Source: an uncultured virus (IMG/VR IMGVR_UViG_3300024999_000095) (Duplodnaviria > Heunggongvirae > Uroviricota > Caudoviricetes). From it: a stretch of DNA of 20,000 nucleotides. Under the pieces are notes generated by a model. It saw only the letters and a list, made by a program, of their open reading frames with translations. It was not told where the DNA came from and did no database searches. Positions 1 through 17,692 of this stretch are shown piece after piece. Made by a program: the position numbers and the translations under genes. The stretch's first letter is position 1. The number at the start of each line of letters is the position of its first letter. The stretch is taken from the IMG/VR virus record IMGVR_UViG_3300024999_000095; one strand, given 5' to 3'.

Positions 1-220
1 GCTTGCCGGGGATGATGTACGTCCCGTCCACCGGAGTCTTGACGATCTTCTCCGTGCCATTAAGATGGACAATCTTTTGCAGCACACAAGACACATGCAC
101 CACCTGACCGGCGAGTTTGCGCTTGGTCGCTGCCGCTACCTTCTTGCGCCGGGACTGGTATGCTTCGTAACTTTCACCTTCAAGACGCGCTGGGTTCATG
201 TTCAGTTCAAACATTGTCAT
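1..220 (-). CDS. Hypothetical phage protein, runs off the left window edge (MTMFELNMNPARLEGESYEAYQSRRKK...)
   Basis: Hand translation: frame open from ATG 220 (or 214) to the edge; AGGAG RBS at ~222-226; follows the 225..941 gene. Confidence 0.7.
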   Translation of the reverse strand, partial: MTMFELNMNPARLEGESYEAYQSRRKKVAAATKRKLAGQVVHVSCVLQKIVHLNGTEKIVKTPVDGTYIIPGK

Positions 221-224
221 TCTC

Positions 225-941
225 CTATTTTTTTGCTTTACGCCGTTCGATGTGTGCCTTATGAAGTTTTTTTATTGCAGCCTCAGACGCATTGGGGATT
301 GATAAAAACTTGGAGCAATCTATCGGATCATCACTCATCATCAAGTCAGACAGCAGATGGACTAACGACCAATTTATCTCGACCCCATTCTTGACCTTTT
401 TGTCGAAAATGATGACAGGTTGTTCCTTGCAGCACAAATGACCAGAAGATTTGTCTATTGCGTTCCCGTAGCCGGTGTTCCTGTCGCCGGTGTTCCCGTC
501 GCCGGTGTTCCTGTCGCCGGTGTTCCCGTAGCCGGTGTTCCTGTCGCCGGTGTTCCTGTCGCCGGTGTTCCTGTGGCCGGTGTTCCTGTCGCCGGTGTTC
601 CCGTAGCCGGTGTTCCTGTCGCCGGTGTTCCCGTAGCCGGTGTTCCTGTCGCCATCAAACGAAACCTCTTCAACCAGTCGAATTTCCATGGCAACATGCT
701 TCAAGTCTGCACCTGGGCCTTCACCTCGCATCACTCCCCGCGCCTCAACCTTGAATATCCTCGTACCGGCATCGCTGTAAAAAGACCACGGGCCAGACGG
801 ATACTCACAGAAATGGAACCCACTCTCACACATTGCGATTTCGCCATTGTGCTTATGCCAAACCCCCAACTCAAACTGAAACCCACGGCATTGCATGTTC
901 TTGTCGGTGGCCTTGAAACCTTTTACTATTTCGTCGGTCAT
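225..941 (-). CDS. Phage pentapeptide-repeat (NTGxx) protein with N-terminal 'KGFKATDKNMQCRGFQFE...CESGFHFC' domain (DUF7666-like)
   Basis: ORF track; AAGGAG RBS; N-terminal motif typical of this phage family; 12-13 NTG(DR/YG/HR/DG) repeats. Confidence 0.85.
   Translation of the reverse strand: MTDEIVKGFKATDKNMQCRGFQFELGVWHKHNGEIAMCESGFHFCEYPSGPWSFYSDAGTRIFKVEARGVMRGEGPGADLKHVAMEIRLVEEVSFDGDRNTGYGNTGDRNTGYGNTGDRNTGHRNTGDRNTGDRNTGYGNTGDRNTGDGNTGDRNTGYGNAIDKSSGHLCCKEQPVIIFDKKVKNGVEINWSLVHLLSDLMMSDDPIDCSKFLSIPNASEAAIKKLHKAHIERRKAKK
462..653. repeat. Coding tandem repeat, 15-bp unit GCCGGTGTTCC(T/C)GT(C/A/G), ~13 copies
   Basis: Directly visible; encodes the NTGxx repeats on the minus strand. 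Confidence 0.97.
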
Positions 942-951
942 GTCACTCTCC

Positions 952-1032
952 TTAGATTTGCACTGCGAATGAGAAAATACATACCGCCATCGTCGCGGCG
1001 ATTACTAGGTAGGACAGGATTGAGTTAATCAT
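952..1032 (-). CDS. Small hydrophobic peptide, 26 aa (MINSILSYLVIAATMAVCIFSFAVQI)
   Basis: Hand translation; ATGA overlap with the upstream gene; stop abuts the RBS of the next gene. Confidence 0.55.
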   Translation of the reverse strand: MINSILSYLVIAATMAVCIFSFAVQI

Positions 1033-1280
1033 CTCACACCCCTAAGCCTTTCAGCCGACTTGCGCCCAGCGTCGAGGTCGGACGCTTCGATGGTGGAGTA
1101 ATCACGGTTCCGGTTTCGCTCGTTCATCCACTCTGCGATTGCTGCCGCTGAAAATTTATAGGTGCGGGGTCCGGTCTTGATGTATGGGAATCCTTCTTCC
1201 TCCATCAATCTTTTGATCGTTGGATACGAAGACCCCATGTGTTTCTCGCATTGTTTGATGTTAATGATAATGTCGCTCAT
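1029..1280 (-). CDS. Excisionase/AlpA-like helix-turn-helix protein
   Basis: 'INIKQCEKHMGSSYPTIKRLMEEEGFPYIKTGPRTYKFSAAAIAEWM' has the HTH_17/AlpA pattern; second gene of the leftward operon near the integrase. Confidence 0.8.
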   Translation of the reverse strand: MSDIIINIKQCEKHMGSSYPTIKRLMEEEGFPYIKTGPRTYKFSAAAIAEWMNERNRNRDYSTIEASDLDAGRKSAERLRGVR

Positions 1281-1537
1281 TTCGTCACCTTCTTAGCTAG
1301 GATTTTCTCTTCGCGCTGTTTTCTGAAGAATTTTCTTAACCGGATATCCAACCTGTCACGCGGTCCTGCTGACCACCCCCAGATAGATATCCCGCTGACT
1401 TCCGCCAACTTTGTATAACTCTCCATCGAGATTGAAAATTTGTCTGCCTTGGCTCTTGACACCGTTAATGGGCAGACTCCTGCCGCCTCCGCTAGACGGT
1501 TTTGACTTGTGATGAATTCCACTTGCTTGTTTTCCAC
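1277..1537 (-). CDS. Cro-like HTH regulator
   Basis: 'SQNRLAEAAGVCPLTVSR' HTH; GTG start with GAGAGGGG RBS; divergent from the repressor. Confidence 0.75.
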   Translation of the reverse strand: MENKQVEFITSQNRLAEAAGVCPLTVSRAKADKFSISMESYTKLAEVSGISIWGWSAGPRDRLDIRLRKFFRKQREEKILAKKVTK

Positions 1538-1539
1538 GA

Positions 1540-1828
1540 CCCCTCTCTTGTTAAATGGTTATCTGTATTAACAATTACAACCACCATTTGACGACAAAGT
1601 ACCACCATCGAAAACGCAACGCAATCACAATTTTCTTATGTGTTGACGTTACTGTTGACGTTTTTAATTGTTTGCATTGCTAAATAGTTGATCTTGCTTA
1701 TTATAAAAATAATGCAAAATTATCACTTGACCTTCACGATAAGATAATTATAAGATTAAGTTGTTGTTTAAATCGTTGTTTACTTTACCTTGCTATGGTG
1801 TATACTTAAAACTCCGGGAGTCCCTGCT
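1540..1828. promoter_or_regulatory. AT-rich divergent immunity/switch region with operator-like repeats
   Basis: Direct repeats TGTTGACGTT (1641-1650, 1653-1662) and ACCACCAT (1580-1587, 1601-1608); candidate rightward promoters TTGACC(1727)-18-TAAGAT(1751) and TTTACT(1779)-16-TATACT(1801). Confidence 0.65.
1596..1624 (-). promoter_or_regulatory. Leftward sigma70-type promoter for the cro-xis operon (TTGCGT-17-TACTTT, TG-extended)
   Basis: -35 = rc of 1619-1624, -10 = rc of 1596-1601, 17-bp spacer. Confidence 0.55.
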
Positions 1829-2938
1829 ATGGAACGTAAAAAAAAATCACAGGCTAAGGAAATGACAAGAGAAGAGGTTGGGTATTTCCTCGTTGGGGTA
1901 CAAACGACAATTGCCGAGAGAGGACTTGTGCAAAAAGATTTGGCACTCGAAGCTGGTGTCAGCCCTGAAAACTTCAGCAAGGTTCTCAATCGCCGCATCG
2001 GGTCATCCGCAAAGTACCGGAAAAAAATCTGTGATGCTCTTAGCGTAACCGTTGAAGAAATGGTGATGATCGGCAAGCCTACCCCCGAACCTCAACAGGA
2101 GGCCACTAAATTCCCGGTGGCGATCCCCAAAGATTACCTTCCCGCTGATGAGGTGGCGCAATACGTAGCCAGAGTGTCTACCTCTTTATTAGATATATCT
2201 GCTTCTTATTCTAAAATAGACGCCCGTTTAAAATATTGGCAGCAACTTTTTGAGACTATGCCAGTTCCTGTGGTCGTTCTTAGAGACGGGTTGGTTTATA
2301 ATCAGAACCGGCGCAGCAGGGCGATCTGGGATGGTTTGGGCCGGTCGCTGTGTTCAGGGTGTCGAGACGAGAAGTGCAAGGAGTACGACTGCAATATCAA
2401 GGACGCAATTGATAAGGGGAAAGACATCGAAGTTTACAAGATGATCGGGGACGATTACTACAAAGTAATAGCAACTCATTTTTCAGCGAATAACCATGAA
2501 TACACGACAATTGTTATTACCCCGATTGCTGAATGTAAAACAGCTATGGAAAAACTTACTCAACTTGCCGACGAGCGGGCATTCCTCGAAAGCAATCAAT
2601 ATGAGGCGGCAGAATACTACGCTGATGCAAATCGCCGCGTGAGTTACTGCAACCATGCATTTCTTCGACTATTTGAGATTGAACGCGACGACATAAAAAC
2701 GACCGACGACTTTCATATTCTTTTGTCAAGGAAACTTTTCTACTTCCAGCACGTAGCGAAAGCAGCAGACGAGGTTCGTATGTCTAAGAAACCGGCAGAA
2801 GTGGTGGCAAAGTTGACGAACAATAAGACGGTCCATTTCATATTCAAACCACATCTCAAGGACGGAGAACTGCAAGGGGTGATGGTGATGGTATTAACCC
2901 CTGAGTTATACGAGGCATTCAACGGAGGTGAAAAATGA
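1829..2938 (+). CDS. CI-position repressor: XRE-family HTH fused to two PAS-like domains (369 aa)
   Basis: ATG 1829 with GGGAG RBS; HTH 'RGLVQKDLALEAGVSPENFSKVLN'; PAS-like 'WQQLFETMPVPVVVLRDGLVYNQN' and 'EYYADANRRVSYCNHAFLRLFEI'; lies between cro and int. Confidence 0.8.
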   Translation: MERKKKSQAKEMTREEVGYFLVGVQTTIAERGLVQKDLALEAGVSPENFSKVLNRRIGSSAKYRKKICDALSVTVEEMVMIGKPTPEPQQEATKFPVAIPKDYLPADEVAQYVARVSTSLLDISASYSKIDARLKYWQQLFETMPVPVVVLRDGLVYNQNRRSRAIWDGLGRSLCSGCRDEKCKEYDCNIKDAIDKGKDIEVYKMIGDDYYKVIATHFSANNHEYTTIVITPIAECKTAMEKLTQLADERAFLESNQYEAAEYYADANRRVSYCNHAFLRLFEIERDDIKTTDDFHILLSRKLFYFQHVAKAADEVRMSKKPAEVVAKLTNNKTVHFIFKPHLKDGELQGVMVMVLTPELYEAFNGGEK

Positions 2939-4041
2939 GTGCGATAGTACGGGAGAAACCCAAAGGTTCAGGCACATGGTACGTTTTTGTCAATGACAAC
3001 GGCCACCGACGAGCAGCCAAGATGCCCAACCGCCGCACCGCCGAGGTGATTGCAAAGGAAATCAACGCTGAGATGATCGCCGGGAAATTCAATCTCGGTA
3101 CTAAGGAGGCGGGAACGGTGCGGGAGTATGCTGAACGGTGGATGGAACACTCTACGGTCAAACCAGCTACCCGCAGCAATTACCAATCAATCCTGACCAC
3201 CCACATCTACCCCAAGTTTGCCGATAAGCCGGTTGACCAGATCAAGCGGGGAGATGTAAAAGACTTTTTGAAGAAGAAGATCAAGGATGGATTGAGCCTG
3301 TCCACGGCCAAGAATATCAAGGCGGCACTCTACAACATTTTTGAGACTGCCCTGGACGATGAGGCTATCCCCTCAAACCCTGCAAGTCGGGTCGGTGAGT
3401 TGGTAGCGAGGAATCAGAAGGCGCACACTACCGGCAAGGCTGGATTCTTCACGCCGGAAGAATTGACTAAATTGTTAAACGCTTTCCTCAAGTATCGACC
3501 GCAACACTACTTGCTTGCGTTGTTATTGGCACGTACAGGCATGAGGGTTGGTGAAGCTGTAGCTTTGCAATGGCGGGACTGCAACTTTGACACTAAACAG
3601 ATATCAGTGAGACGGGCGAAGTCGCGGACGGTCATCGACACTACCAAATCAGGCAAGGATAGACTGATAGATATGAGTGACCAGTTAGCCTCCGAATTGA
3701 GGAAGAAGCGCACCGAGGCAGTGTCCGACTCACTCAGAACGGGGCGAAGGTCAGACTATATATTCGTCGGCAGGACAAGTGCGACACTCGACCCGACTGC
3801 GTGGCGTAAGCGCAACTTCGATCCGATGTGTGAAAAGGCGGGGCTGGGGAAAAGGTTGGTTAAGGATCTCCGGCATACTTACGCATCGTTACTCCTGTAC
3901 CACGGCAAGTCGCTGAAATATGTGCAGCAGCAACTCGGACATCACTCTATCAAGATTACGGCAGACACGTACTCGCACCTCATCAAGAACCCGGATCATG
4001 GGACTGTTAATGTGCTGGACGATGTAGTGAGTGGGGAGTAG
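2935..4041 (+). CDS. int: Tyrosine recombinase (phage integrase)
   Basis: 'ARTGMRVGEAVALQW', 'KDLRHTYAS', 'LGHHSIKITADTYSH'; N-terminal arm-binding-like segment; adjacent to attP. Confidence 0.97.
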   Translation: MSAIVREKPKGSGTWYVFVNDNGHRRAAKMPNRRTAEVIAKEINAEMIAGKFNLGTKEAGTVREYAERWMEHSTVKPATRSNYQSILTTHIYPKFADKPVDQIKRGDVKDFLKKKIKDGLSLSTAKNIKAALYNIFETALDDEAIPSNPASRVGELVARNQKAHTTGKAGFFTPEELTKLLNAFLKYRPQHYLLALLLARTGMRVGEAVALQWRDCNFDTKQISVRRAKSRTVIDTTKSGKDRLIDMSDQLASELRKKRTEAVSDSLRTGRRSDYIFVGRTSATLDPTAWRKRNFDPMCEKAGLGKRLVKDLRHTYASLLLYHGKSLKYVQQQLGHHSIKITADTYSHLIKNPDHGTVNVLDDVVSGE

Positions 4042-4048
4042 GGGCTTT

Positions 4049-4073
4049 GCAACCTTGCGCAACGGAATGCAAC
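4049..4073 (+). repeat. Probable integrase arm-type sites: GCAAC x3 at exact 10-bp period
   Basis: GCAAC at 4049, 4059, 4069; related GCCAC/GCAAC/ACAAC at 4246, 4266, 4276 on the other side of the core. Confidence 0.65.
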
Positions 4074-4082
4074 TGGAAAAAT

Positions 4083-4120
4083 AAAAAGGGTTCTCAGATT
4101 GCTCTGGAACCCTTTGTTTT
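4083..4120. terminator. Bidirectional intrinsic terminator between int and the tRNA fragment
   Basis: AAAGGGTTC(T)CAGA-TTGC-TCTGGAACCCTTT hairpin with A-run before and T-rich tail after. Confidence 0.85.
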
Positions 4121-4122
4121 AC

Positions 4123-4167
4123 TGGAGCCAATAAGGGGACTCGAACCCCTGACCTACTGGTTACGAA
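4123..4167 (-). other. attP: attP identity block: 3' half of tRNA-Thr(CGT), anticodon loop to CCA
   Basis: Minus strand reads TTCGTAA CCAGT AGGTC AGGGG TTCGAGT CCCCT TATTGGC T CCA; the 5' half is absent. Confidence 0.9.
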
Positions 4168-4196
4168 AGAGTTGTCCTTATTTCGGCTACTTATAA

Positions 4197-4209
4197 TATC
4201 AAGCGGTTA
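4197..4209 (+). promoter_or_regulatory. IHF consensus site in the attP arm
   Basis: TATCAAGCGGTTA matches WATCAANNNNTTR exactly. Confidence 0.6.
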
Positions 4210-4289
4210 CGTGTTCAGGCAAATCACTTATATTGTTAGGAATCTGCCACTTTCTTGACTAATCTGCAACTATTTACAACCAAATTGAC

Positions 4290-4868
4290 TCAGATTGACT
4301 TGTTAGGAACCAATGCGGCAATTTTCTTTTTTACCCAATCCTCACCCTTCTGTGAGACGAGATAATTGTATGCTGTAGAGTCTTCGTTGCACTCGTTCCA
4401 CCCTACTTCTACCTCACTCTCAAATCTGATCATCACCGCAGTTATTTTGTCGTTAAACAGGCCAAGGTTTACGCCTTTGTTGTCCACTTTTATTTGTGCA
4501 CACCACTTGCCGCTTCGCTTGTCATAGTGAACACCCCTAATCCCAGACGTATTCTTGACAGACACTAATGAATTGCGGAGATTGCATTGCTGAGACACTT
4601 CTCTCAGGTTCTCTATCCTGTTATCGTCTCTTATGTGGTTGATATGGTCAATCCCCTTTTCGGGGAGATACCCATGATGCCAAAGCCAAACTACACGGTG
4701 AACCCTGTATTCTTTCTTGTCAATCTTAACCAGCACATACCCTTCGTTATGCCGTCTTGTTATGACCTCCCCTTCCCTCGCAGTGGGACTGGCACTCACC
4801 CTCCGCACCAGCACACCATCTTCCCGATAATCGAACAACTCCCGGACTCTTTCCTGCGTCAGTTTCAT
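4290..4868 (-). CDS. HNH endonuclease with C-terminal AP2 domain
   Basis: 'HRVVWLWHHG...IDHINHIRDDNRIENLR' HNH; 'NTSGIRGV...KWCAQI...LGLF' AP2. Confidence 0.93.
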   Translation of the reverse strand: MKLTQERVRELFDYREDGVLVRRVSASPTAREGEVITRRHNEGYVLVKIDKKEYRVHRVVWLWHHGYLPEKGIDHINHIRDDNRIENLREVSQQCNLRNSLVSVKNTSGIRGVHYDKRSGKWCAQIKVDNKGVNLGLFNDKITAVMIRFESEVEVGWNECNEDSTAYNYLVSQKGEDWVKKKIAALVPNKSI

Positions 4869-4965
4869 TTCACCTCACTCGTTGAATTAATCTTGCAGCG
4901 CAACCGAGTACATTTTCGCACCCCATCCGCACATATCCGCACACAGTTGAGCACGGTGGCGCACG

Positions 4966-5352
4966 TTAGGACTCCTCGTCATCAAGGTCTTCCCAACAAT
5001 CCTCAATCATCGCACAGACCATAGCCCTTGCCCCTGGTGTCAATGCTTCAATACAGGACTCGGAGATATCACCGCCGCTGTCATTAACGTGTTCTTCAAG
5101 CATCCACTTAGTTTCGCCGTAATAAAATCCGTCCTTGAAGAACTCGCGCCGGATGCTCAGGCAATCCAGGCAAGTTTTGTGCTTGGATATTTCGCCATCA
5201 TAGACAGTAACCTCAAGATTGTATTTCTCACCCACATCAATCACTCGCTTGCACTCGTTGCATTTATGCTGCTTCCTGGCTACTGGTTGTTCTTCCCGCA
5301 GCATCGTGCAATAATCTTCGACATCACAATAAACTGTTGCACATTCCATCAC
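4966..5352 (-). CDS. Phage protein with CxxC...CxxC zinc-finger
   Basis: 'ARKQHKCNECKRVI...KTCLDC'; coupled overlap with the upstream gene. Confidence 0.8.
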   Translation of the reverse strand: MMECATVYCDVEDYCTMLREEQPVARKQHKCNECKRVIDVGEKYNLEVTVYDGEISKHKTCLDCLSIRREFFKDGFYYGETKWMLEEHVNDSGGDISESCIEALTPGARAMVCAMIEDCWEDLDDEES

Positions 5353-5636
5353 CCCACCTCCTTATCAGGGATTACCACATACTCTGGCACCCTGCTCATC
5401 TCCATACTGAGAACCTTGTCAAAAAGTGTCTCGTATTGGAGCATGATGTGATATGCCAGCATCGTCATCCTGTCTTCACCGGACAACCCGTCTCGATCTG
5501 CAATCTGGTAGACATAGCGTACCGTTGTTGCGGTTGCGCTAAGGGTTCGGGAGTACCCACCTTCCTTTTCCTCAAGCCTGGCACCTAAATACGCCACATC
5601 GTGAATCCGCCGCCTCATCTCGTTAATGTCCATCAC
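5349..5636 (-). CDS. Hypothetical phage protein
   Basis: ORF track; part of a tightly packed leftward array. Confidence 0.75.
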   Translation of the reverse strand: MMDINEMRRRIHDVAYLGARLEEKEGGYSRTLSATATTVRYVYQIADRDGLSGEDRMTMLAYHIMLQYETLFDKVLSMEMSRVPEYVVIPDKEVG

Positions 5637-5641
5637 ACCCC

Positions 5642-5836
5642 CTACAGTCCGTTTTCATCCAGCACATGAGAAAGCAGGATAGCCAGCATCTCAGCAGTCT
5701 GCTCCCTGATGAACGATTCCTCGGCCCGCCTTGCCCATTCCAGATTAGTCATGGGGTTAGCCTCCACCTCGTTTTTGCACCTGTCAATGTATCTGCCGAT
5801 GCAGTCCATTATCCCTTCGCGTACTGTACTCATCAC
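5642..5836 (-). CDS. Hypothetical phage protein
   Basis: ORF track; GGGGAG RBS; overlap with neighbour. Confidence 0.7.
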   Translation of the reverse strand: MMSTVREGIMDCIGRYIDRCKNEVEANPMTNLEWARRAEESFIREQTAEMLAILLSHVLDENGL

Positions 5837-6048
5837 CGCTCCCCCGTATATTTGACATTCCGCTCAGGGAACTTCTCCCGGCAAGCGAGCCGAACAAACG
5901 ATGCCGCGCGCTCGTTTTTCGCGTTCGGAATATTCTGCAATATGCAGTCCTCGTATGTCCTCGGCTCGTTGAACTGTGACACTAGGTACGCCCCTGAGAT
6001 GAGGGTTACTACGACTATACCCATAAGCAGCATCTTATTGTCCATCAC
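5833..6048 (-). CDS. Small membrane-anchored protein (N-terminal TM, 'TYEDCIL...ACREKFP')
   Basis: AAGGAGG RBS; hydrophobic N-terminus followed by a Cys pair. Confidence 0.75.
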   Translation of the reverse strand: MMDNKMLLMGIVVVTLISGAYLVSQFNEPRTYEDCILQNIPNAKNERAASFVRLACREKFPERNVKYTGER

Positions 6049-6250
6049 ACCTCCTTGCCGCTAAGTATTCAGCGGCCTCCAAACAACTCCGGGAAAGATA
6101 GCGTAAGTCTGATTCAGACAAGTACACCTTGCCGCACTCCCCATCGCCATCAGCATCAAGCATATATCCTTTGAAATGCTTGCCATCCACAGTCGGACTA
6201 AAGTTGCCAAGGAATTTCATATCCTCCCTTGCTTGCTTGCTCAGTTCCAT
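6035..6250 (-). CDS. Hypothetical phage protein (MELSKQ...)
   Basis: AAGGAGG RBS before ATG 6250; first gene of the leftward accessory operon. Confidence 0.75.
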   Translation of the reverse strand: MELSKQAREDMKFLGNFSPTVDGKHFKGYMLDADGDGECGKVYLSESDLRYLSRSCLEAAEYLAARRCDGQ

Positions 6251-6306
6251 CACCCCTCCTTTTGTTCTACATTCTAGAATCAAAGAAACTCTGCCTTGTA
6301 GATCAA

Positions 6307-6342
6307 ATATTACTTGCCTATCACAAAAAAATCAAGTATATT
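6307..6342. promoter_or_regulatory. Overlapping divergent sigma70 promoters
   Basis: Rightward TTGCCT(6314)-17-TATATT(6337); leftward TTGATT(rc 6330-6335)-17-TAATAT(rc 6307-6312). Confidence 0.6.
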
Positions 6343-6370
6343 TTACGTATGATAATAAAAAAGGAGGCGC

Positions 6371-6538
6371 ATGAAGAAACCAGCAATTACAGAGACTATC
6401 TGCCTTGAGTGTGTTTGTCAACGCTGCGGTCATCGGTGGGTAGCGCGGGGCAAGGTTGCTCCTAAGCTCTGCCCCAATCAGAAATGTCACAGTCCTAATT
6501 GGACTACGGCTAAGAAGGTTAAGAAGGAGGGGATATGA
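6371..6538 (+). CDS. Small zinc-ribbon protein, 55 aa (CQRCGHRW...PKLCPNQKCHSPNW)
   Basis: Hand translation (not in ORF track); AAGGAGG RBS; ATGA overlap with the next gene. Confidence 0.85.
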   Translation: MKKPAITETICLECVCQRCGHRWVARGKVAPKLCPNQKCHSPNWTTAKKVKKEGI

Positions 6539-6726
6539 AACCATCACCAGAAAACGGAGGAGGTTGGGTTAAGCCGACCTTCAGCGAGATATCAGAGAGG
6601 TGCCCGTGGCGGGACGTTGGTCAATGCATAGTATTATGGACAGCGGAGAGATATAGGAAGCTGGGCGGGGCCAACTGTTCGCCAGAGCATTGCGCTGTGT
6701 TCTACTGGATCAAGGAGATGCGATGA
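6535..6726 (+). CDS. Small Cys-containing hypothetical protein
   Basis: ORF track; AAGGAGG RBS; coupled overlaps. Confidence 0.7.
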   Translation: MKPSPENGGGWVKPTFSEISERCPWRDVGQCIVLWTAERYRKLGGANCSPEHCAVFYWIKEMR

Positions 6727-7046
6727 AGATCCAAGCGCACCGCATCCGCATCACCACTCCGCAGCCGATAAGGTGGTATGCCGACAAAGTAGGGCGGCAG
6801 TTTTGGGCTGAATACGTAGGCTCTGATTTTTGCTGGAAGGTAATTCAGGAAGGGAATACAGACACGCCACGGTACGTTCATGCGTTTGAGTGTGTGGTCG
6901 TGCGTGAGGCTGAGGTTGAGGTTGACCTGATACAGACAGTACGGGAGATTAAGAAATGCAAGTGCGACTTCCGCACCCGCTTAGTCGGTGACGGATGCTC
7001 TGTTTGCAACCCTGAGTATGCAGCGCAATTCAAAGAGGATGAATGA
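6723..7046 (+). CDS. Hypothetical phage protein with C-terminal 'CKC...GDGCSVCNP' motif
   Basis: ATG 6723 after AAGGAG; ATGA overlap. Confidence 0.75.
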   Translation: MKIQAHRIRITTPQPIRWYADKVGRQFWAEYVGSDFCWKVIQEGNTDTPRYVHAFECVVVREAEVEVDLIQTVREIKKCKCDFRTRLVGDGCSVCNPEYAAQFKEDE

Positions 7047-7222
7047 TGGACCAGGCTACAATAGGCCTAGACCTTGTTGTTGGGGGGATATTATCAAGGA
7101 TTGCTGGTTGCGAAGAGTACCGCGACATCTGCGAGGACATCCACGCGCAGCTATCCGAGCGGGGGGAGGTGGACCCATACACTCGTGATCGGCTGAAAAT
7201 TTTGATTGATGGGGAGGAATGA
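7043..7222 (+). CDS. Hypothetical protein, 59 aa (MMDQATIGLDLVVGG...)
   Basis: Hand translation; ATGA overlaps at both ends. Confidence 0.7.
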   Translation: MMDQATIGLDLVVGGILSRIAGCEEYRDICEDIHAQLSERGEVDPYTRDRLKILIDGEE

Positions 7223-7635
7223 TGAAGATACAAGTAATTATTGAGGTGCCGGATGGAACTGAATGCACTGGCTGTGTCCATCTATATGAAAATGTCTTCA
7301 GTGGATACAACTGCGCTTTGTTTGTCGGGGAAACTGGCGATTCGGTATTCATCGAGGGGTTCAGCAAATGCCCCCAGTGCCGCGCCGCAGAGGTGAAGCC
7401 AAGCATAATCACGACAGTAGGAGTTTCCTCAACCGGGCATAATCTTTTGCTGCTTGCTGACGGCAATGGGGTGGATGTAATGAAAAAATACAAGGTGACA
7501 CTAGAACCATTCGCAGAGGTGAAGGATGATGACGCTGGAATGTTGGAGTACGACACTGATACAGGGATATATCGAGTGAGGGGAAATGGCAATAGCCTGG
7601 ATAACCTGCGGGTCGTGCGGAAGGAGGGGGAGTGA
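7219..7635 (+). CDS. Hypothetical Cys-containing phage protein
   Basis: ORF track; GGAGG RBS. Confidence 0.75.
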   Translation: MMKIQVIIEVPDGTECTGCVHLYENVFSGYNCALFVGETGDSVFIEGFSKCPQCRAAEVKPSIITTVGVSSTGHNLLLLADGNGVDVMKKYKVTLEPFAEVKDDDAGMLEYDTDTGIYRVRGNGNSLDNLRVVRKEGE

Positions 7636-7636
7636 G

Positions 7637-7969
7637 ATGAGGGAAGAGGACGAAAGCAACATCGCATGGGGAATGGCGGACACTGAAGACCATTTCAAGA
7701 AGGCAAATGAATGGGCATACCGTATCATGGCCAAGCATGAAGGCTTGAAGTGTGGCGAAACCTGCACTCGTTGCGGAGGATGGGGTTGTATGTGTGTACC
7801 GGTGCTGCTGGTGGAGCTTGATGATGCTGAGGCAAAGTACCAAGAACTGATCATGGCGGTTGCAAAGAAATACCCCGGCGAGTCGAGGCATGAAACGGCA
7901 CTGAGGTATATCATGCAGGCTGAGGCTGTAGATTGCGGCCCTGCTCAATGTGTTAAGGAGGATGAGTGA
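7637..7969 (+). CDS. Hypothetical phage protein ('KYQELIMAVAKKYPGESRHETALRYI')
   Basis: ATG 7637 after a purine-rich RBS; in the operon. Confidence 0.75.
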   Translation: MREEDESNIAWGMADTEDHFKKANEWAYRIMAKHEGLKCGETCTRCGGWGCMCVPVLLVELDDAEAKYQELIMAVAKKYPGESRHETALRYIMQAEAVDCGPAQCVKEDE

Positions 7970-8292
7970 TGGACCTACACAAAAAGATAATGAATATTGG
8001 ATATGACAAAGAGACGATGGATAAATTTGATGATCTAGATGATCTCTTGAATTACAAGATGGGGCACCGTGACGCACGACACGCCGCCGCTGAACTGGCT
8101 ATCGCGCACGATGCCAAGTACGCTGAGTTGATGGAATCGCACCGGGAGTTACTGGCTGCGGTAAACCATTGTCGGGAGGCCCTAAGAGACAACCTATCAA
8201 AGTATGCCTACAAGAACGAACTGATCATGCTTGATGCTCTCACGGTAGCCGACAATGCAATTGCCAAGGCTGAAGCACTGGGAGGGGAATAG
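7966..8292 (+). CDS. Hypothetical phage protein ('YKMGHRDARHAAAELA' motif)
   Basis: ORF track; GGAGG RBS; motif familiar from phage accessory proteins. Confidence 0.8.
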   Translation: MMDLHKKIMNIGYDKETMDKFDDLDDLLNYKMGHRDARHAAAELAIAHDAKYAELMESHRELLAAVNHCREALRDNLSKYAYKNELIMLDALTVADNAIAKAEALGGE

Positions 8293-8442
8293 ATGAATAG
8301 CATAATGATGGGAGTTGGTTCAGTGCTGATTTTCGCTAATGCCCCATCCGCGCTATCTGGCGATGTATGGTCCTTGGGAGCAATCGTTGTGCTGTCTATC
8401 GCCGTTGGGGCTACGCTGTGTAACATAGTGAGTGGAAATTAA
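8293..8442 (+). CDS. Small membrane protein, 49 aa
   Basis: Hand translation MNSIMMGVGSVLIF...; GGAGG RBS; two hydrophobic stretches. Confidence 0.6.
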   Translation: MNSIMMGVGSVLIFANAPSALSGDVWSLGAIVVLSIAVGATLCNIVSGN

Positions 8443-8460
8443 ACTTAACCGGAGGACACC

Positions 8461-8619
8461 ATGAAGAATTTACTGAACGCAATAATGTGTTTCGTATTCG
8501 GGCATCTGCTTCGCCATAGGGCAACGCACAACTCGACCGCGAATATCAACGTATGTTTGCGCTGCGGGAAGGTGGTGCATGTGGATCGGCCTGGGGTGCG
8601 GTTTAGTATTGCGCGATGA
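8461..8619 (+). CDS. Small C-x3-GH...CxxC protein, 52 aa (DUF1660-like pattern)
   Basis: Hand translation MKNLLNAIMCFVFGH...VCLRCGK; GGAGG RBS. Confidence 0.75.
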   Translation: MKNLLNAIMCFVFGHLLRHRATHNSTANINVCLRCGKVVHVDRPGVRFSIAR

Positions 8620-8822
8620 TGGGGTTTGTGTGGGCATGTGTCGTGTTTTCTGTGTGGATACTGATTGGCGCTGGACTATGGGCATACTGGGACGACGACC
8701 AACAAACTCTACTGAAGCAGGCTAAGAAGGACCATGAATACCTGCCGCAATTGCTTATGCTGACATGGCCTGTTTTCCTTTGGAAGTGGTTAAGGCGAGA
8801 CAAATATAAAGTGGTTCGATGA
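8616..8822 (+). CDS. Small two-TM membrane protein
   Basis: ORF track; hydrophobic segments; ATGA overlap. Confidence 0.7.
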   Translation: MMGFVWACVVFSVWILIGAGLWAYWDDDQQTLLKQAKKDHEYLPQLLMLTWPVFLWKWLRRDKYKVVR

Positions 8823-8834
8823 TGGGTGGGGGTA

Positions 8835-8984
8835 ATGAAGATAGTCCATATAGACCAGTGCGGAGATTGCCCACATCGGTATTACGAGGGCAATGAGATA
8901 TGGTGCGGGAAAGAGAACCTAGAGGTTGATGCGTGGTTCATTCCGAAGTGGTGCCCATTGCCTAATGCTGAGGGGGATGAGTAA
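8835..8984 (+). CDS. Small Cys-rich protein, 49 aa (CGDCP...C...IPKWCPL)
   Basis: Hand translation; 'IPxWCPL' motif common in phage microproteins. Confidence 0.75.
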   Translation: MKIVHIDQCGDCPHRYYEGNEIWCGKENLEVDAWFIPKWCPLPNAEGDE

Positions 8985-9017
8985 GTTTGAGGGGATGATC
9001 GGATTAAAACCGATTTT

Positions 9018-9537
9018 TGGTGCAGGGATGGGGTATCTATTCGTTAGGCAAAGCTACCCCTACCCCGATTTTCTTGATGGTTCCTAGGAGAGAGATGTTA
9101 CACTCCTGTAGTACCAAAAAGAGCCGCAAGAGGTGTAAGCGGCAACCATTGCTGGTGACTGACTTCGTTTATCGCGCCGGAGTATTTTTCGTGGACTATC
9201 CCTTGTCCCATATCCACCGATGATATCAATCGAACTGATATCTGCCGTGGTCGCGTTCCCATCAAGTGCCAAAAAGCTTCTTTCGGCGGCGCGTGTATCG
9301 TGTGGGACCGGGGCAAGTCCCGAAGTCAATTCTTTTTGCCAATTGCACAGGTTACTTTTTTGGCTGGCAGGCCGGGGCATGTTAAGAACGCTGAATAAGA
9401 AAAGCCCCTGTCAGCGACACGTTCCAATTAATCCTGCCGGGAAAAGTAAACTCTTGGAAAATGCCGCCAACAAGGGCGTATGGGATTCGCAGTCATTCTA
9501 TCTCCCGGCAGGAAGAAAGTCAAGTATCATTTGACCC
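9018..9537 (-). ncRNA. Candidate large, multi-pseudoknotted non-coding RNA (~520 nt), family not identified
   Basis: No convincing ORF; near-consensus promoter directly upstream; more than 12 helices including long-range and crossing pairings; GNRA tetraloop and T-loop-like loop on the minus strand. Confidence 0.7.
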
Positions 9538-9597: not shown

Positions 9598-9867
9598 ATG
9601 GAAGAAGATTTACAGTACGCAATAGTGTATATCAACAGGGCAATCCGCAACCTTGCGAAGGTGCCAGAGAAGCAGGCAATTCATGAAGTGCTTGAGATGT
9701 GCGGGGCAATTGACGAACGGTACAAGGAGTTTTGCAGTGAGTTTGACGAACAGGATGGATTACCAGAGGGGACCACATACGGCAAGGAGGATGGGATCTC
9801 GATAGAGTTTTACCTTGAGGCAGACGACTGGCACAAGGTAAGTCTTGCCTTGCGGAAGTTGGGTTAA
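9598..9867 (+). CDS. Acidic hypothetical protein
   Basis: ORF track; AAAGGTG RBS; convergent with the endolysin. Confidence 0.7.
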   Translation: MEEDLQYAIVYINRAIRNLAKVPEKQAIHEVLEMCGAIDERYKEFCSEFDEQDGLPEGTTYGKEDGISIEFYLEADDWHKVSLALRKLG

Positions 9868-10262
9868 CCATTACGCATAATTTCAGATAACTCTTTAGCC
9901 CTCCTGCCCACTTGCCGCGCCCACAATGATTTCAACATCTGATCAGCAGCGGCAGAGTAGTCCCCCTTGTCGATGTAACCGAGTGTCTTATTGAATTTCT
10001 CCAGTCCGTCTATGCCGAGGTTGAAGGCCATGTTGATAAGCACCCCCTGCCGTTCCCCAGAAAGCCCTGAGAAGAACGGCAGGCGTTTGCATAGGGTGGC
10101 TCGTATTTTCTCTACGCGATGCACCAGCAGCCACTCAGCCTCTTCCTCGGTGATTCCAGCGTCGAGATTGATTCCGTAGCCTATGGTGAGGTGGCCGGTC
10201 GTGTCCATATAGGGCCTAGACCGGAACCCTTCATGACGCTTTAGGCCTTCTATCACGCTCAT
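9864..10262 (-). CDS. Endolysin, phage lysozyme (T4-like/GH24-type muramidase)
   Basis: 'LKRHEGFRSRPYMDTTGHLTIGYGINL', 'NMAFNLG', 'SLWARQVGRRA'; start at ATG 10262. Confidence 0.93.
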   Translation of the reverse strand: MSVIEGLKRHEGFRSRPYMDTTGHLTIGYGINLDAGITEEEAEWLLVHRVEKIRATLCKRLPFFSGLSGERQGVLINMAFNLGIDGLEKFNKTLGYIDKGDYSAAADQMLKSLWARQVGRRAKELSEIMRNG

Positions 10263-10537
10263 TAGGGTATTTTTATACCAAAGAAAGTAAGCATCAGGAA
10301 TGCCACAAAACCAATCCCCAGAACAGCGATGACGCTCTTTAAGGTTGACCACTTAATTTCCTGCAACTTTTTCAAGGTAGCAATCAACTCGACAAGGAAT
10401 TGATGCTGCGCCTCGTGCTGAATCCAATACTCAGTGTCGTGGCAGAGTTTACATACCGCAGCGTCATGCCTGATATATGACGCAATCGCCTGCTGTGCCG
10501 CCTGATTAGCAACCTCTCGGATCTCTTCTGGGGTCAT
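10262..10537 (-). CDS. Membrane protein with C-terminal TM, holin-like
   Basis: AAGGA RBS before ATG 10537; C-terminal hydrophobic helix; directly upstream of the endolysin. Confidence 0.65.
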   Translation of the reverse strand: MTPEEIREVANQAAQQAIASYIRHDAAVCKLCHDTEYWIQHEAQHQFLVELIATLKKLQEIKWSTLKSVIAVLGIGFVAFLMLTFFGIKIP

Positions 10538-16996: not shown

Positions 16997-17692
16997 ATGG
17001 CTCTATTGCAAGACCTGACTGGACAAACTTTCAATATGCTGTACGTGGAAAAAATCTCACACCGCCACGGACCAAGGAAGAGGCCATACTACCAGTGTAC
17101 CTGCTCATGTGGCGGGACTGCTGTCGTTGAAGGTAGCAACCTGAAAAACGGTTCAGTCAAGTCGTGTGGTTGTTTGTTGAAAAAGGCTCCCCCGAACAAA
17201 ACACACGGAGGCAGGCAGCATCCTCTTTACAGCGTTTGGCAGAATATGAAAAACAGGTGCTACAATAGCAACGTCCCAGCTTACAAAGATTATGGGGAGA
17301 TCGGCGTTGACGTATGCGATTTGTGGCGTAACGACTTCCAACCGTTCTTTGACTGGGCCAAAGCAAACAACTGGGAAAAGGGTTTAGAGATTGACCGTAT
17401 TAAAAACGACAAAGGGTATTCCCCGGACAATTGTAGAATAGTCACAAGGAAAGTAAATCTCACCAACAATGGGATATATAACAACAACACCACCGGATTT
17501 GTTGGCGTTTCCCCTTTGCCACACTCAGAGGGCCGGTACGTCTCAACGGTATCGGTTGATGGCAAGCAAAAGTACCTCGGGACGTTCGATACTGTAGAGG
17601 ACGCTGTAGCAACCCGTAATAGATTCATTGCTGGCAACGCCCTGTTGCTGAAGGTTCAGCCTATGCCCTCTCAAGAAAACTCTGTATCATAG
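16997..17692 (+). CDS. HNH-type homing endonuclease with AP2 domain
   Basis: 'DLTGQTF...CTCSCG...KSCGC', 'LYSVWQNMKNRC', 'EIDRIKNDKGYSPDNCR', AP2 'NTTGFVGV...YLGTFDTVEDAV'; GGAGG RBS. Confidence 0.9.
   Translation: MALLQDLTGQTFNMLYVEKISHRHGPRKRPYYQCTCSCGGTAVVEGSNLKNGSVKSCGCLLKKAPPNKTHGGRQHPLYSVWQNMKNRCYNSNVPAYKDYGEIGVDVCDLWRNDFQPFFDWAKANNWEKGLEIDRIKNDKGYSPDNCRIVTRKVNLTNNGIYNNNTTGFVGVSPLPHSEGRYVSTVSVDGKQKYLGTFDTVEDAVATRNRFIAGNALLLKVQPMPSQENSVS

Follow-up and report, generated by a model that had tools for sequence, protein, structure and literature searches.

Prophage induction is still mostly explained by RecA-driven cleavage of the phage repressor. To our knowledge, the SOS-independent routes that have been described employ separate receptors or antirepressors. 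The available text of a review on SOS-independent induction lists quorum sensing, RpoS, and "repressor oxidation" (PMC13760530); in that text, the words 'ligand' and 'cysteine' are absent and the passages containing 'PAS' name no PAS domain. In this study, we analyzed a 20,000-nucleotide stretch of DNA from an uncultured virus of the Caudoviricetes (IMG/VR record IMGVR_UViG_3300024999_000095; the whole stretch is called the window hereafter). The gene in its cI position encodes a protein, P0001, in which a helix-turn-helix (HTH) of the XRE/Cro-C1 type is followed by two PAS folds, the first of which (PAS-A) carries four nearly invariant cysteines. We propose, with moderate confidence, that P0001 is a dimeric immunity repressor of the CI type, and that its four PAS-A cysteines (Cys4) hold a metal centre, either an iron-sulfur (Fe-S) cluster or zinc, which makes repression sensitive to redox state or oxygen.

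The ingredients of such a protein are known, and include non-cleavable XRE repressors, regulators that join an XRE HTH to a PAS-like domain (MltR), Fe-S PAS sensors, and a phage-encoded PAS receptor (VqmA-Phage). As described in the available part of one report, VqmA-Phage of the vibriophage VP882 consists of a PAS domain and an HTH, and ties the lysis-lysogeny decision to a signal other than DNA damage (PMC8284805). Among the Fe-S PAS sensors, the available parts of two further reports describe NreB, whose PAS domain binds a [2Fe-2S] cluster through CX2CX11C and a [4Fe-4S] cluster through CX2CX11CX2C (PMC13478379), and OrpR, whose PAS domain holds a redox-sensitive [4Fe-4S] cluster through C52, C61, and C65 (PMC8359166); the cluster reports oxygen, sulfide, or redox potential (PMC13478379; PMC8359166). 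What appears to be new here is the combination, namely a phage immunity repressor with a Cys4 PAS domain of its own and a putative centre in it, which recurs near integrases and belongs to a family of 65 clusters. No report of a phage repressor composed of an XRE HTH and PAS domains was found in the open-access full-text literature searched. We regard the family and the cysteine motif as solid, and put forward the sensing role as a hypothesis.

Results

The sequence-only reading of the window had assigned to this gene an XRE HTH followed by two PAS domains and had seen no S24 peptidase motif in its product, and both assignments are borne out by Pfam, by the structural model, and by PAS matches in Foldseek and VIA-align (Z about 11). 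A first AlphaFold model of the 369-aa protein, built from 8 close homologues, was mediocre, with a predicted local distance difference test score (pLDDT) of 71; a second model, built from a 61-row family alignment, has a mean pLDDT of 91.6. In the second model, the HTH helices (residues 14-82) are followed by a low-confidence linker (about 86-104), a long helix (106-142), PAS-A, a linker helix (234-254), and the second PAS fold (PAS-B), with the strand and helix order of PAS domains seen at 148-232 and 261-356. The strands of PAS-A lie at 148-152, 155-159, 200-206, 209-220, and 223-232.

The HTH was recognized at several levels. Residues 28-77 match Pfam HTH_26 with 21.1 bits, just below the cut-off of 22, and the family profile matched XRE-type HTH structures at E values from 3e-7 to 1e-4. 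Across the family (n=61), HTH_3 was matched by 20/61 members, HTH_31 by 15/61, and HTH_26 by 13/61. In VIA-align comparisons, the modelled HTH superimposes on C.BclI (Z 10.6, root-mean-square deviation (rmsd) 2.9 over 76 residues) and C.AhdI (Z 10.4, rmsd 1.9 over 66), and on DdrO (Z 10.0).

The PAS assignment is based on fold as well as on profiles. PAS-A matches EcDOS 1v9y (model residues 135-232; Z 10.7, rmsd 2.1 over 91) and the LOV structure 8a3u (model residues 129-241; Z 11.3), while PAS-B matches ThkA 3a0v (Z 11.5, rmsd 2.4 over 93) and the PAS domain of hERG (Z 11.2, rmsd 2.3 over 99). Pfam PAS_8 scores 28 bits on P0001 against a cut-off of 21.8, its best stretch (265-296) lying within PAS-B; a second PAS_8 stretch was reported without a position. 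With Foldseek, tandem-PAS structures were matched by the two domains together, including PpsR (E 1.7e-10), DosP (E 2.6e-10), and PAS-A/B of FixL (E 3.8e-9; TM 0.50 over 252 columns), the FixL and DosP matches spanning both PAS domains. PAS clusters were also returned with P0001 by a protein-language and structure look-up, which we take as a lead only. Neither Peptidase_S24 nor any other C-terminal family is among the 8 Pfam matches at E <= 1, and the C-terminal 230 residues are modelled entirely as PAS-PAS with pLDDT > 90. Because the C-terminal part consists of two PAS folds and contains no S24 domain, RecA-stimulated self-cleavage of P0001 is not expected. No ligand-specific Pfam PAS subfamily was matched by P0001 or its family; NCBIfam has no family for P0001, and the PHROGs matched are regulator families at the level of the HTH only.

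P0001 belongs to a family that, together with its cysteine motif at residues 175-188, goes beyond what had been read from the sequence. A word-based search returned 8 close proteins including the query (54-81% identity), and an exhaustive HMMER search yielded 65 cluster representatives at E <= 1e-3, 46 of them at E <= 1e-10. The family alignment comprises P0001-P0061; P0062-P0072, whose matches are weak or confined to the HTH and among which is a protein of 4599 aa, were left out. Short forms of less than 330 aa, which stop after PAS-A, make up 44/61 of the aligned members, and long forms with PAS-B make up the other 17/61. As judged from this alignment, the common core of the family is the HTH and PAS-A only. 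The family is unnamed and almost purely metagenomic. Ten clusters were checked for names: a single one contains an NCBI member, annotated as 'hypothetical protein' and derived from a Porphyromonadaceae metagenome-assembled genome (MAG), and for one JGI gives the name Xre-family regulator.

Searches elsewhere gave little. With P0001, tblastn against the phage GenBank collection produced no match at 1e-3; nothing was found in GTDB genomes searched with the close-family alignment, nor in viral contigs searched with P0013. When the wide family alignment was searched against Clostridia (five genomes sharing the tRNA described below, and 400 genomes of the class), the matches were at the level of the HTH only and none reached beyond profile position 137 of 271; no family member was detected in the genomes searched. 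Among BFVD viral structures, none of the matches listed is a clear HTH + PAS + PAS equivalent; the top ones are histidine kinases with PAS domains and single PAS or HTH proteins that stand alone.

The sole near-invariant columns of the 61-row alignment are W137, Q159, N160, G171, C175, C178, C183, and C188. The four cysteines form the family motif CX2CX4CX4-6C, which the model places in a helical insert between strands 2 and 3 of PAS-A. In PAS sensors with heme or flavin, too, the cofactor sits in the segment between these strands. Two of the 61 rows do not reach the site; among the remaining 59, all four cysteines are present in 52. The per-column counts are 55, 55, 55, and 57 of 61, and W137 is present in 55/61. 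The seven members without the full set read CFCC, ECCC, ACCC, HQDC, and DYSC, plus two truncated rows. In the 42 rows caught by a pattern search, CX2C is followed by a spacing of 4 (less often 3 or 5) and then of 4 to 6, and the residue after the motif is Pro in 19/42 and Ala in 9/42. PAS-A thus has the conserved cysteines, three or four within the PAS domain, that mark Fe-S PAS sensors. In the member at L006:10004-11065 (LRESCHDPRCKEVGHC), the first motif cysteine is replaced by Arg and His residues stand beside the second and fourth, which looks like a possible Cys-to-His ligand exchange, as expected at a metal site. A reading of the motif as a heme c-type CXXCH site was ruled out, as P0001 has no His after the second cysteine.

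P0001 is predicted to form a homodimer with an ipSAE of 0.62 (0.62, 0.61, and 0.64 in separate runs), against 0.00 for the best control. Agreement between runs covers at least 75% of the contacts, and the pLDDT of the partners is at least 76. Of proteins with solved structures, 20/30 that are pairs of one chain and 1/23 that are single chains reached this mark, a calibration from which the fold of P0001 departs both in its 61-row alignment and in an unscored 4Fe-4S cluster that rode along. The interface comprises helix 102-146 with W137, the PAS-A sheet, helix 235-260, and the PAS-B sheet, with the contacts of lowest error at residues 133-146. The prediction is of a parallel homodimer held together by the long helix and the PAS sheets.

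The gene had also been placed in the cI position, and its surroundings agree: an integrase gene overlaps its stop codon, and genes for an 86-aa HTH protein and an 83-aa excisionase-like protein diverge from it upstream (Table 1). Apart from P0001, no HTH protein of repressor size lies at the divergent switch, and the open reading frames (ORFs) scanned include no further candidate repressor. Two related loci, L006 and L007, share 86-94% DNA identity with window positions 1-952 and 87% with 2807-4971, and have no DNA match to 953-2806. This interval covers the Xis-like gene, the Cro-like gene, the switch region, and the repressor gene for the most part; at the protein level, the repressor of L006 and L007 has only 47% identity to P0001. 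A swapped block of Xis, Cro, switch region, and repressor is a typical difference between heteroimmune relatives, and this cassette swap is the best indirect support for P0001 being the immunity repressor. The borders of the cassette are sharp and mosaic. As the right border (2807) lies inside the repressor gene, the last ~44 codons of PAS-B travel with the integrase block.

The association with integrases, which the sequence-only reading had suggested looking for, recurs in the family. A tyrosine integrase lies on the same strand at most two genes downstream in 7/9 scanned loci (the window, L003, L004, L006, L008, L039, and L040), L039 and L040 carrying short forms, and none was found near the family member in Pfam neighbour scans of L009 and L010. 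L007, whose ORF layout is that of L006, and L012 were outside these scans, and L005 and L011 are too short to judge.

Table 1. Coordinates of the repressor gene, its domains, and the surrounding features in the window
Feature	Coordinates	Strand	Evidence
Gene of the HTH-PAS-PAS protein P0001, candidate immunity repressor	1829..2938	+	ORF (ATG 1829 to stop 2938), domains, homologues
XRE/Cro-C1-type HTH, residues 14-82, five helices	1868..2074	+	AlphaFold model, Pfam, profile, structure matches
Long helix, residues 106-142, from HTH linker to PAS-A	2144..2254	+	AlphaFold model; predicted dimer-interface core; holds near-invariant W137
PAS-A fold, residues 143-233, conserved family core	2255..2527	+	AlphaFold model, structure matches
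Cys175-x2-Cys178-x4-Cys183-x4-Cys188, candidate metal/Fe-S ligand set in the PAS-A helical part	2351..2392	+	61-row alignment
PAS-B fold, residues 255-360, long-form members only	2591..2908	+	Pfam PAS_8, ThkA match
Divergent switch region, 291 bp, gap between repressor gene and Cro-like gene	1538..1828	.	sigma-70-like sites, direct repeats
Small HTH protein, 86 aa, Cro position, first gene of the leftward operon	1277..1537	-	weak only: HTH_3 E 0.03; PHROG 725 'CII-like regulator' E 1.3e-3
Excisionase-like HTH protein, 83 aa	1029..1280	-	HTH_17 E 4e-4; PHROG 66 'excisionase and transcriptional regulator' E 1.2e-6; TIGR01764 24.4 bits, below cut-off 28.8
DUF7666 + pentapeptide-repeat protein, 238 aa	225-941	-	Pfam
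Tyrosine integrase (int), start overlapping repressor stop (ATGA)	2935..4041	+	Phage_integrase E 2.1e-23; PHROG 1 E 3.1e-68
3' half of tRNA-Thr(CGT) gene including CCA, just downstream of int	4123..4169	-	alignment to tRNA-Thr(CGT) 3' halves in six genomes

Another IMG/VR record, G001, represents the same phage, being 100% identical over window positions 1-9240 and extending 8 kb leftward. The leftward operon runs through the Cro-like, Xis-like, and DUF7666 genes and, on the G001 extension, through genes for RusA, NinB, a single-strand annealing protein, a YqaJ exonuclease, an HNH endonuclease, and a primase. By its gene order, the region is laid out as a lysogeny operon opposite an early lytic operon. 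The start of the repressor gene is preceded by a GGGAG Shine-Dalgarno sequence 8 nt 5' of the ATG, as read from the sequence, and 5/7 close homologues begin in the same alignment column. In the switch region, four sigma-70-like sites were found on the + strand, where 1.4 are expected. The direct repeat TGTTGACGTT occurs at 1641-1650 and 1653-1662, 12 nt apart, with TTGACG appearing a third time at 1588, and ACCACCAT occurs twice (1580 and 1601). These repeats are candidate operator half-sites.

Several further features of the related loci were observed. L010, a contig of 62.7 kb, has many segments of 75-95% identity in common with the window, and at 2205-2927 encodes a short-form member of 240 aa (HTH and PAS-A) that faces a Bro-N/KilAC gene and has no adjoining integrase; a 211-aa ORF downstream of it is apparently the antisense of real minus-strand genes. 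In L003 (11123-11500) and L040 (6735-7127), genes between repressor and integrase encode lipoproteins, 48% identical to each other, with a signal peptide and an LSGCAG lipobox and no Pfam or NCBIfam family. They are candidates for superinfection-exclusion genes expressed during lysogeny. A repressor-protease pair of the ImmR/ImmA type was ruled out, since no ImmA/IrrE metalloprotease (HEXXH) adjoins the repressor. The window has no gene between the repressor gene and int, the genes at this place in L003, L040, and L004 contain no HEXXH, and these intervening genes have no Pfam or NCBIfam matches, except for a 122-aa gene of L004 that matches HTH families.

The stretch is contained in four runs, all of them DNA contig sets of one groundwater study, and no RNA set containing it is listed. 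A whole tRNA was not found in the window by ARAGORN. The tRNA-Thr(CGT) half beside int in the window probably represents the attP core, for which a tRNA 3' half at this place is the usual form. The final 32 nt of the fragment are found without mismatch in 6 genomes of the GTDB species set, all of them Clostridia MAGs, and strong Shine-Dalgarno sites (GGGAG of the repressor gene, and GGAGGTG) precede two genes. An anaerobic Gram-positive host is suggested by these features. As for an integrated form, one X2/X4 contig (one sample) leaves the window at 4167 into sequence resembling a tRNA D-arm; its acceptor letters do not pair with the acceptor strand of the window, and it was not counted as a host junction.

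Elsewhere in the phage, the DUF7666 gene contains a tandem array of 15-nt repeats (about 455-697), and in all four runs the contigs are 30-100 times deeper at 435-651 than in the neighbouring sequence. Given this depth, the repeat must be common to many other sequences. Three HNH endonuclease genes were seen, at 4290-4868 (-) and 16997-17692 (+) of the window and at L002:1855-2409 (-), two of which combine HNH_3 with an AP2-like domain and belong to PHROG family phrog_99. Of the 30 ORFs scanned between 5349 and 19871, 28 have no PHROG family at E <= 1e-3, which indicates a very poorly charted phage lineage. The only products recognized there are a lysozyme (9864-10352) and an HNH endonuclease, and large ORFs of 736, 451, and 223 aa have no Pfam match.

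Discussion

Taken together, the position, the architecture, and the motif of P0001 lead us to infer that this protein may be its own sensor. In the mechanism that we propose, the repressor dimer would bind operators in the 291-bp switch region, and the bound dimer would shut off the leftward operon of Cro, Xis, recombination, and replication genes. The four PAS-A cysteines would hold a metal centre of either the Fe-S or the zinc-thiolate type. Under the influence of oxygen, oxidants, NO, or a lack of iron, this centre would be oxidized, lost, or not assembled, and the altered centre would change PAS-A and the adjoining dimer helix, such that operator binding becomes weaker and the prophage is induced without RecA. 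PAS-B, as an add-on of a minority of members, might strengthen oligomerisation or provide a second input. A signal involving a metal, an Fe-S cluster, or thiol redox chemistry is favoured over a metabolite or a quorum cue because the Cys4 motif is the only near-invariant candidate sensing feature. Compact four-cysteine motifs are known to hold [4Fe-4S] in endonuclease III and [2Fe-2S] in SoxR. Fe-S and zinc are indistinguishable here, and either may serve as an oxidant-sensitive switch at the Cys4 site.

A number of observations weigh against this proposal. The 2-4-4 spacing of the cysteines is that of the retroviral CCHC zinc knuckle, which favours zinc as much as Fe-S, and three of the seven members with an incomplete cysteine set (P0032, P0037, and P0021) retain the fold, so the site is not indispensable for the protein. 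In the switch region, no sigma-70-like site was found on the - strand, hence no leftward promoter, and no convincing repeated palindromic operator was found in 1538-1828. The dimer prediction is weakened by its departures from the calibration, and also because PAS dimers are abundant among solved structures, so that the pass may come from likeness. The host is likewise only suggested to be anaerobic, because the anticodon stem of the tRNA fragment differs from those of the six Clostridia MAGs and the family was not found in the 400 Clostridia genomes searched. Finally, the spacing differs from that of the Fe-S PAS sensors as given in the available parts of the reports on them, CX2CX11C(X2C) in NreB (PMC13478379) and CX8CX3C in OrpR (PMC8359166), against CX2CX4CX4-6C here.

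The explanation that survives best beside a redox-sensing repressor is that P0001 is an immunity repressor and no sensor at all, with PAS folds that, like the C-terminal domain of CI, act only in dimerisation and cooperativity, a structural zinc, and induction by an antirepressor or some other host or phage factor. We consider this a serious rival, though it is not the explanation that we prefer. The predicted interface, formed by the long helix together with the two PAS sheets, leaves the Cys motif outside, and the zinc-knuckle spacing would fit a structural site. Non-cleavable repressors that are inactivated by antirepressors are a known type, and antirepressor genes do lie across the switch, in the divergent operon, in relatives: L004 has Rha (E 1e-27), L009/L010 have such a gene as well (Bro-N + KilAC in L010), and L039 has Rha + KilAC (ANT). 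As relatives often have Rha or KilAC at this place, antirepressor-driven induction is a live alternative to direct sensing, and it counts against our proposal. However, scans of 7 + 30 ORFs in the window and of 15 leftward ORFs revealed no antirepressor-like gene in this phage. A purely structural site also fails to explain why near-invariance is limited to Q159, N160, the four cysteines, W137, and G171. Moreover, Cys4 zinc sites can be redox switches, as in Hsp33 and RsrA, so the presence of zinc would be compatible with sensing.

It is unlikely, in our estimation, that the repressor senses a small organic ligand, such as a metabolite or a quorum signal, in a pocket of PAS-B or PAS-A. Both domains are well-modelled examples of a fold that often binds small ligands, and the available parts of two reports describe a fatty-acid-binding regulator with an XRE HTH and a PAS-like domain, MltR (PMC3406030), and a PAS receptor for a quorum signal in phage VP882 (PMC8284805). 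However, PAS-B is missing in 44/61 members and hence is not the common input of the family. Across the 17 long forms, conservation in PAS-B falls mostly on aromatic, aliphatic, Gly, or Pro residues (Y264, Y273, F278, F282, F295, L303, L329, F339, P341, G346, and G350), with D294, K302, and R317 in addition, and none of these residues is a recognisable cofactor ligand; nor, as stated above, does either domain fall into a ligand-specific Pfam PAS subfamily.

Least probable of all is that P0001 is an accessory regulator of the lysogeny operon (for control of int, establishment of lysogeny, or host genes) rather than the maintenance repressor, for while the switch region has no recognisable operators and the divergent small HTH protein has a weak 'CII-like' PHROG match, P0001 is the only candidate repressor among the scanned ORFs, the cassette swap between similar phages is a signature of immunity regions, and the position recurs in 7/9 scanned loci.

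Returning to the redox-sensing repressor, we extend the proposal to the family only tentatively. Members of this unnamed family of phage repressors might be one-component redox or oxygen sensors of the Fe-S or zinc-thiolate type, whose Cys4 PAS domain reads the redox state of the host, so that phages of anaerobes could be induced by oxygen or oxidants without RecA, LexA, or an antirepressor. If true, a single protein would link the redox state of the environment directly to the lysis-lysogeny switch. This would matter in aquifers and other anoxic habitats, in which induction by mitomycin C is often unsuccessful. In addition, the family is small, soluble, and modular, with short forms of ~230 aa that consist of an HTH and one PAS domain, and could also serve as a compact redox-responsive transcription switch.

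Comparison with known systems

P0001 resembles repressors of the lambda CI/LexA type in its N-terminal Cro/C1-type HTH, in the divergence of its gene from cro, and in its place in a lysogeny operon with int. The likeness extends to the dimer through the C-terminal part, which is predicted here, and to the exchangeable immunity cassette. In contrast to these repressors, the C-terminal part of P0001 consists of two PAS folds instead of an S24 peptidase.

The order of an XRE HTH followed by a PAS-type domain is also that of the MmyB-like regulator MltR (PDB 3pxp), which is described in the available part of the report as a dimeric one-component regulator (PMC3406030). Unlike P0001, MltR is a cellular protein (Actinomycetes, Chloroflexi) with one enlarged PAS-like domain that binds fatty acids, and has no Cys4 motif. 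No ligand domain of the MmyB type is among the Pfam matches of P0001 at E <= 1, and 3pxp is not among the 50 matches listed in either structure search; a relationship with the MmyB type is still possible.

In NreB (residues 63-78, with Cys 63, 66, and 78) and OrpR (52-65), as far as the available parts of the reports go, conserved cysteines lie in the helical part of the PAS domain, at a position similar to that of the motif in P0001 (PMC13478379; PMC8359166). Whereas P0001 acts through an XRE HTH, the output of NreB is a histidine kinase and that of OrpR is a sigma-54 activator. There is no detectable sequence relationship between the P0001 family and either protein, and the cluster in the P0001 family is only putative.

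The best structural match to the PAS-PAS part is PpsR/CrtJ (4hh2, the match at E 1.7e-10), a DNA-binding repressor with several PAS domains and helical linkers. PpsR has its HTH at the C-terminus and regulates photosynthesis genes in the cell. Unlike P0001, it has no Cys4 motif in its PAS domains, and the sequence identity is 13-16%.

VqmA-Phage, like P0001, is a phage-encoded protein that combines PAS with an HTH. In VqmA, the PAS domain comes first and is followed by a C-terminal HTH of the LuxR type, and the protein activates an antirepressor gene (Qtip). VqmA-Phage is separate from the VP882 repressor, whereas P0001, as the presumed repressor, contains PAS domains of its own.

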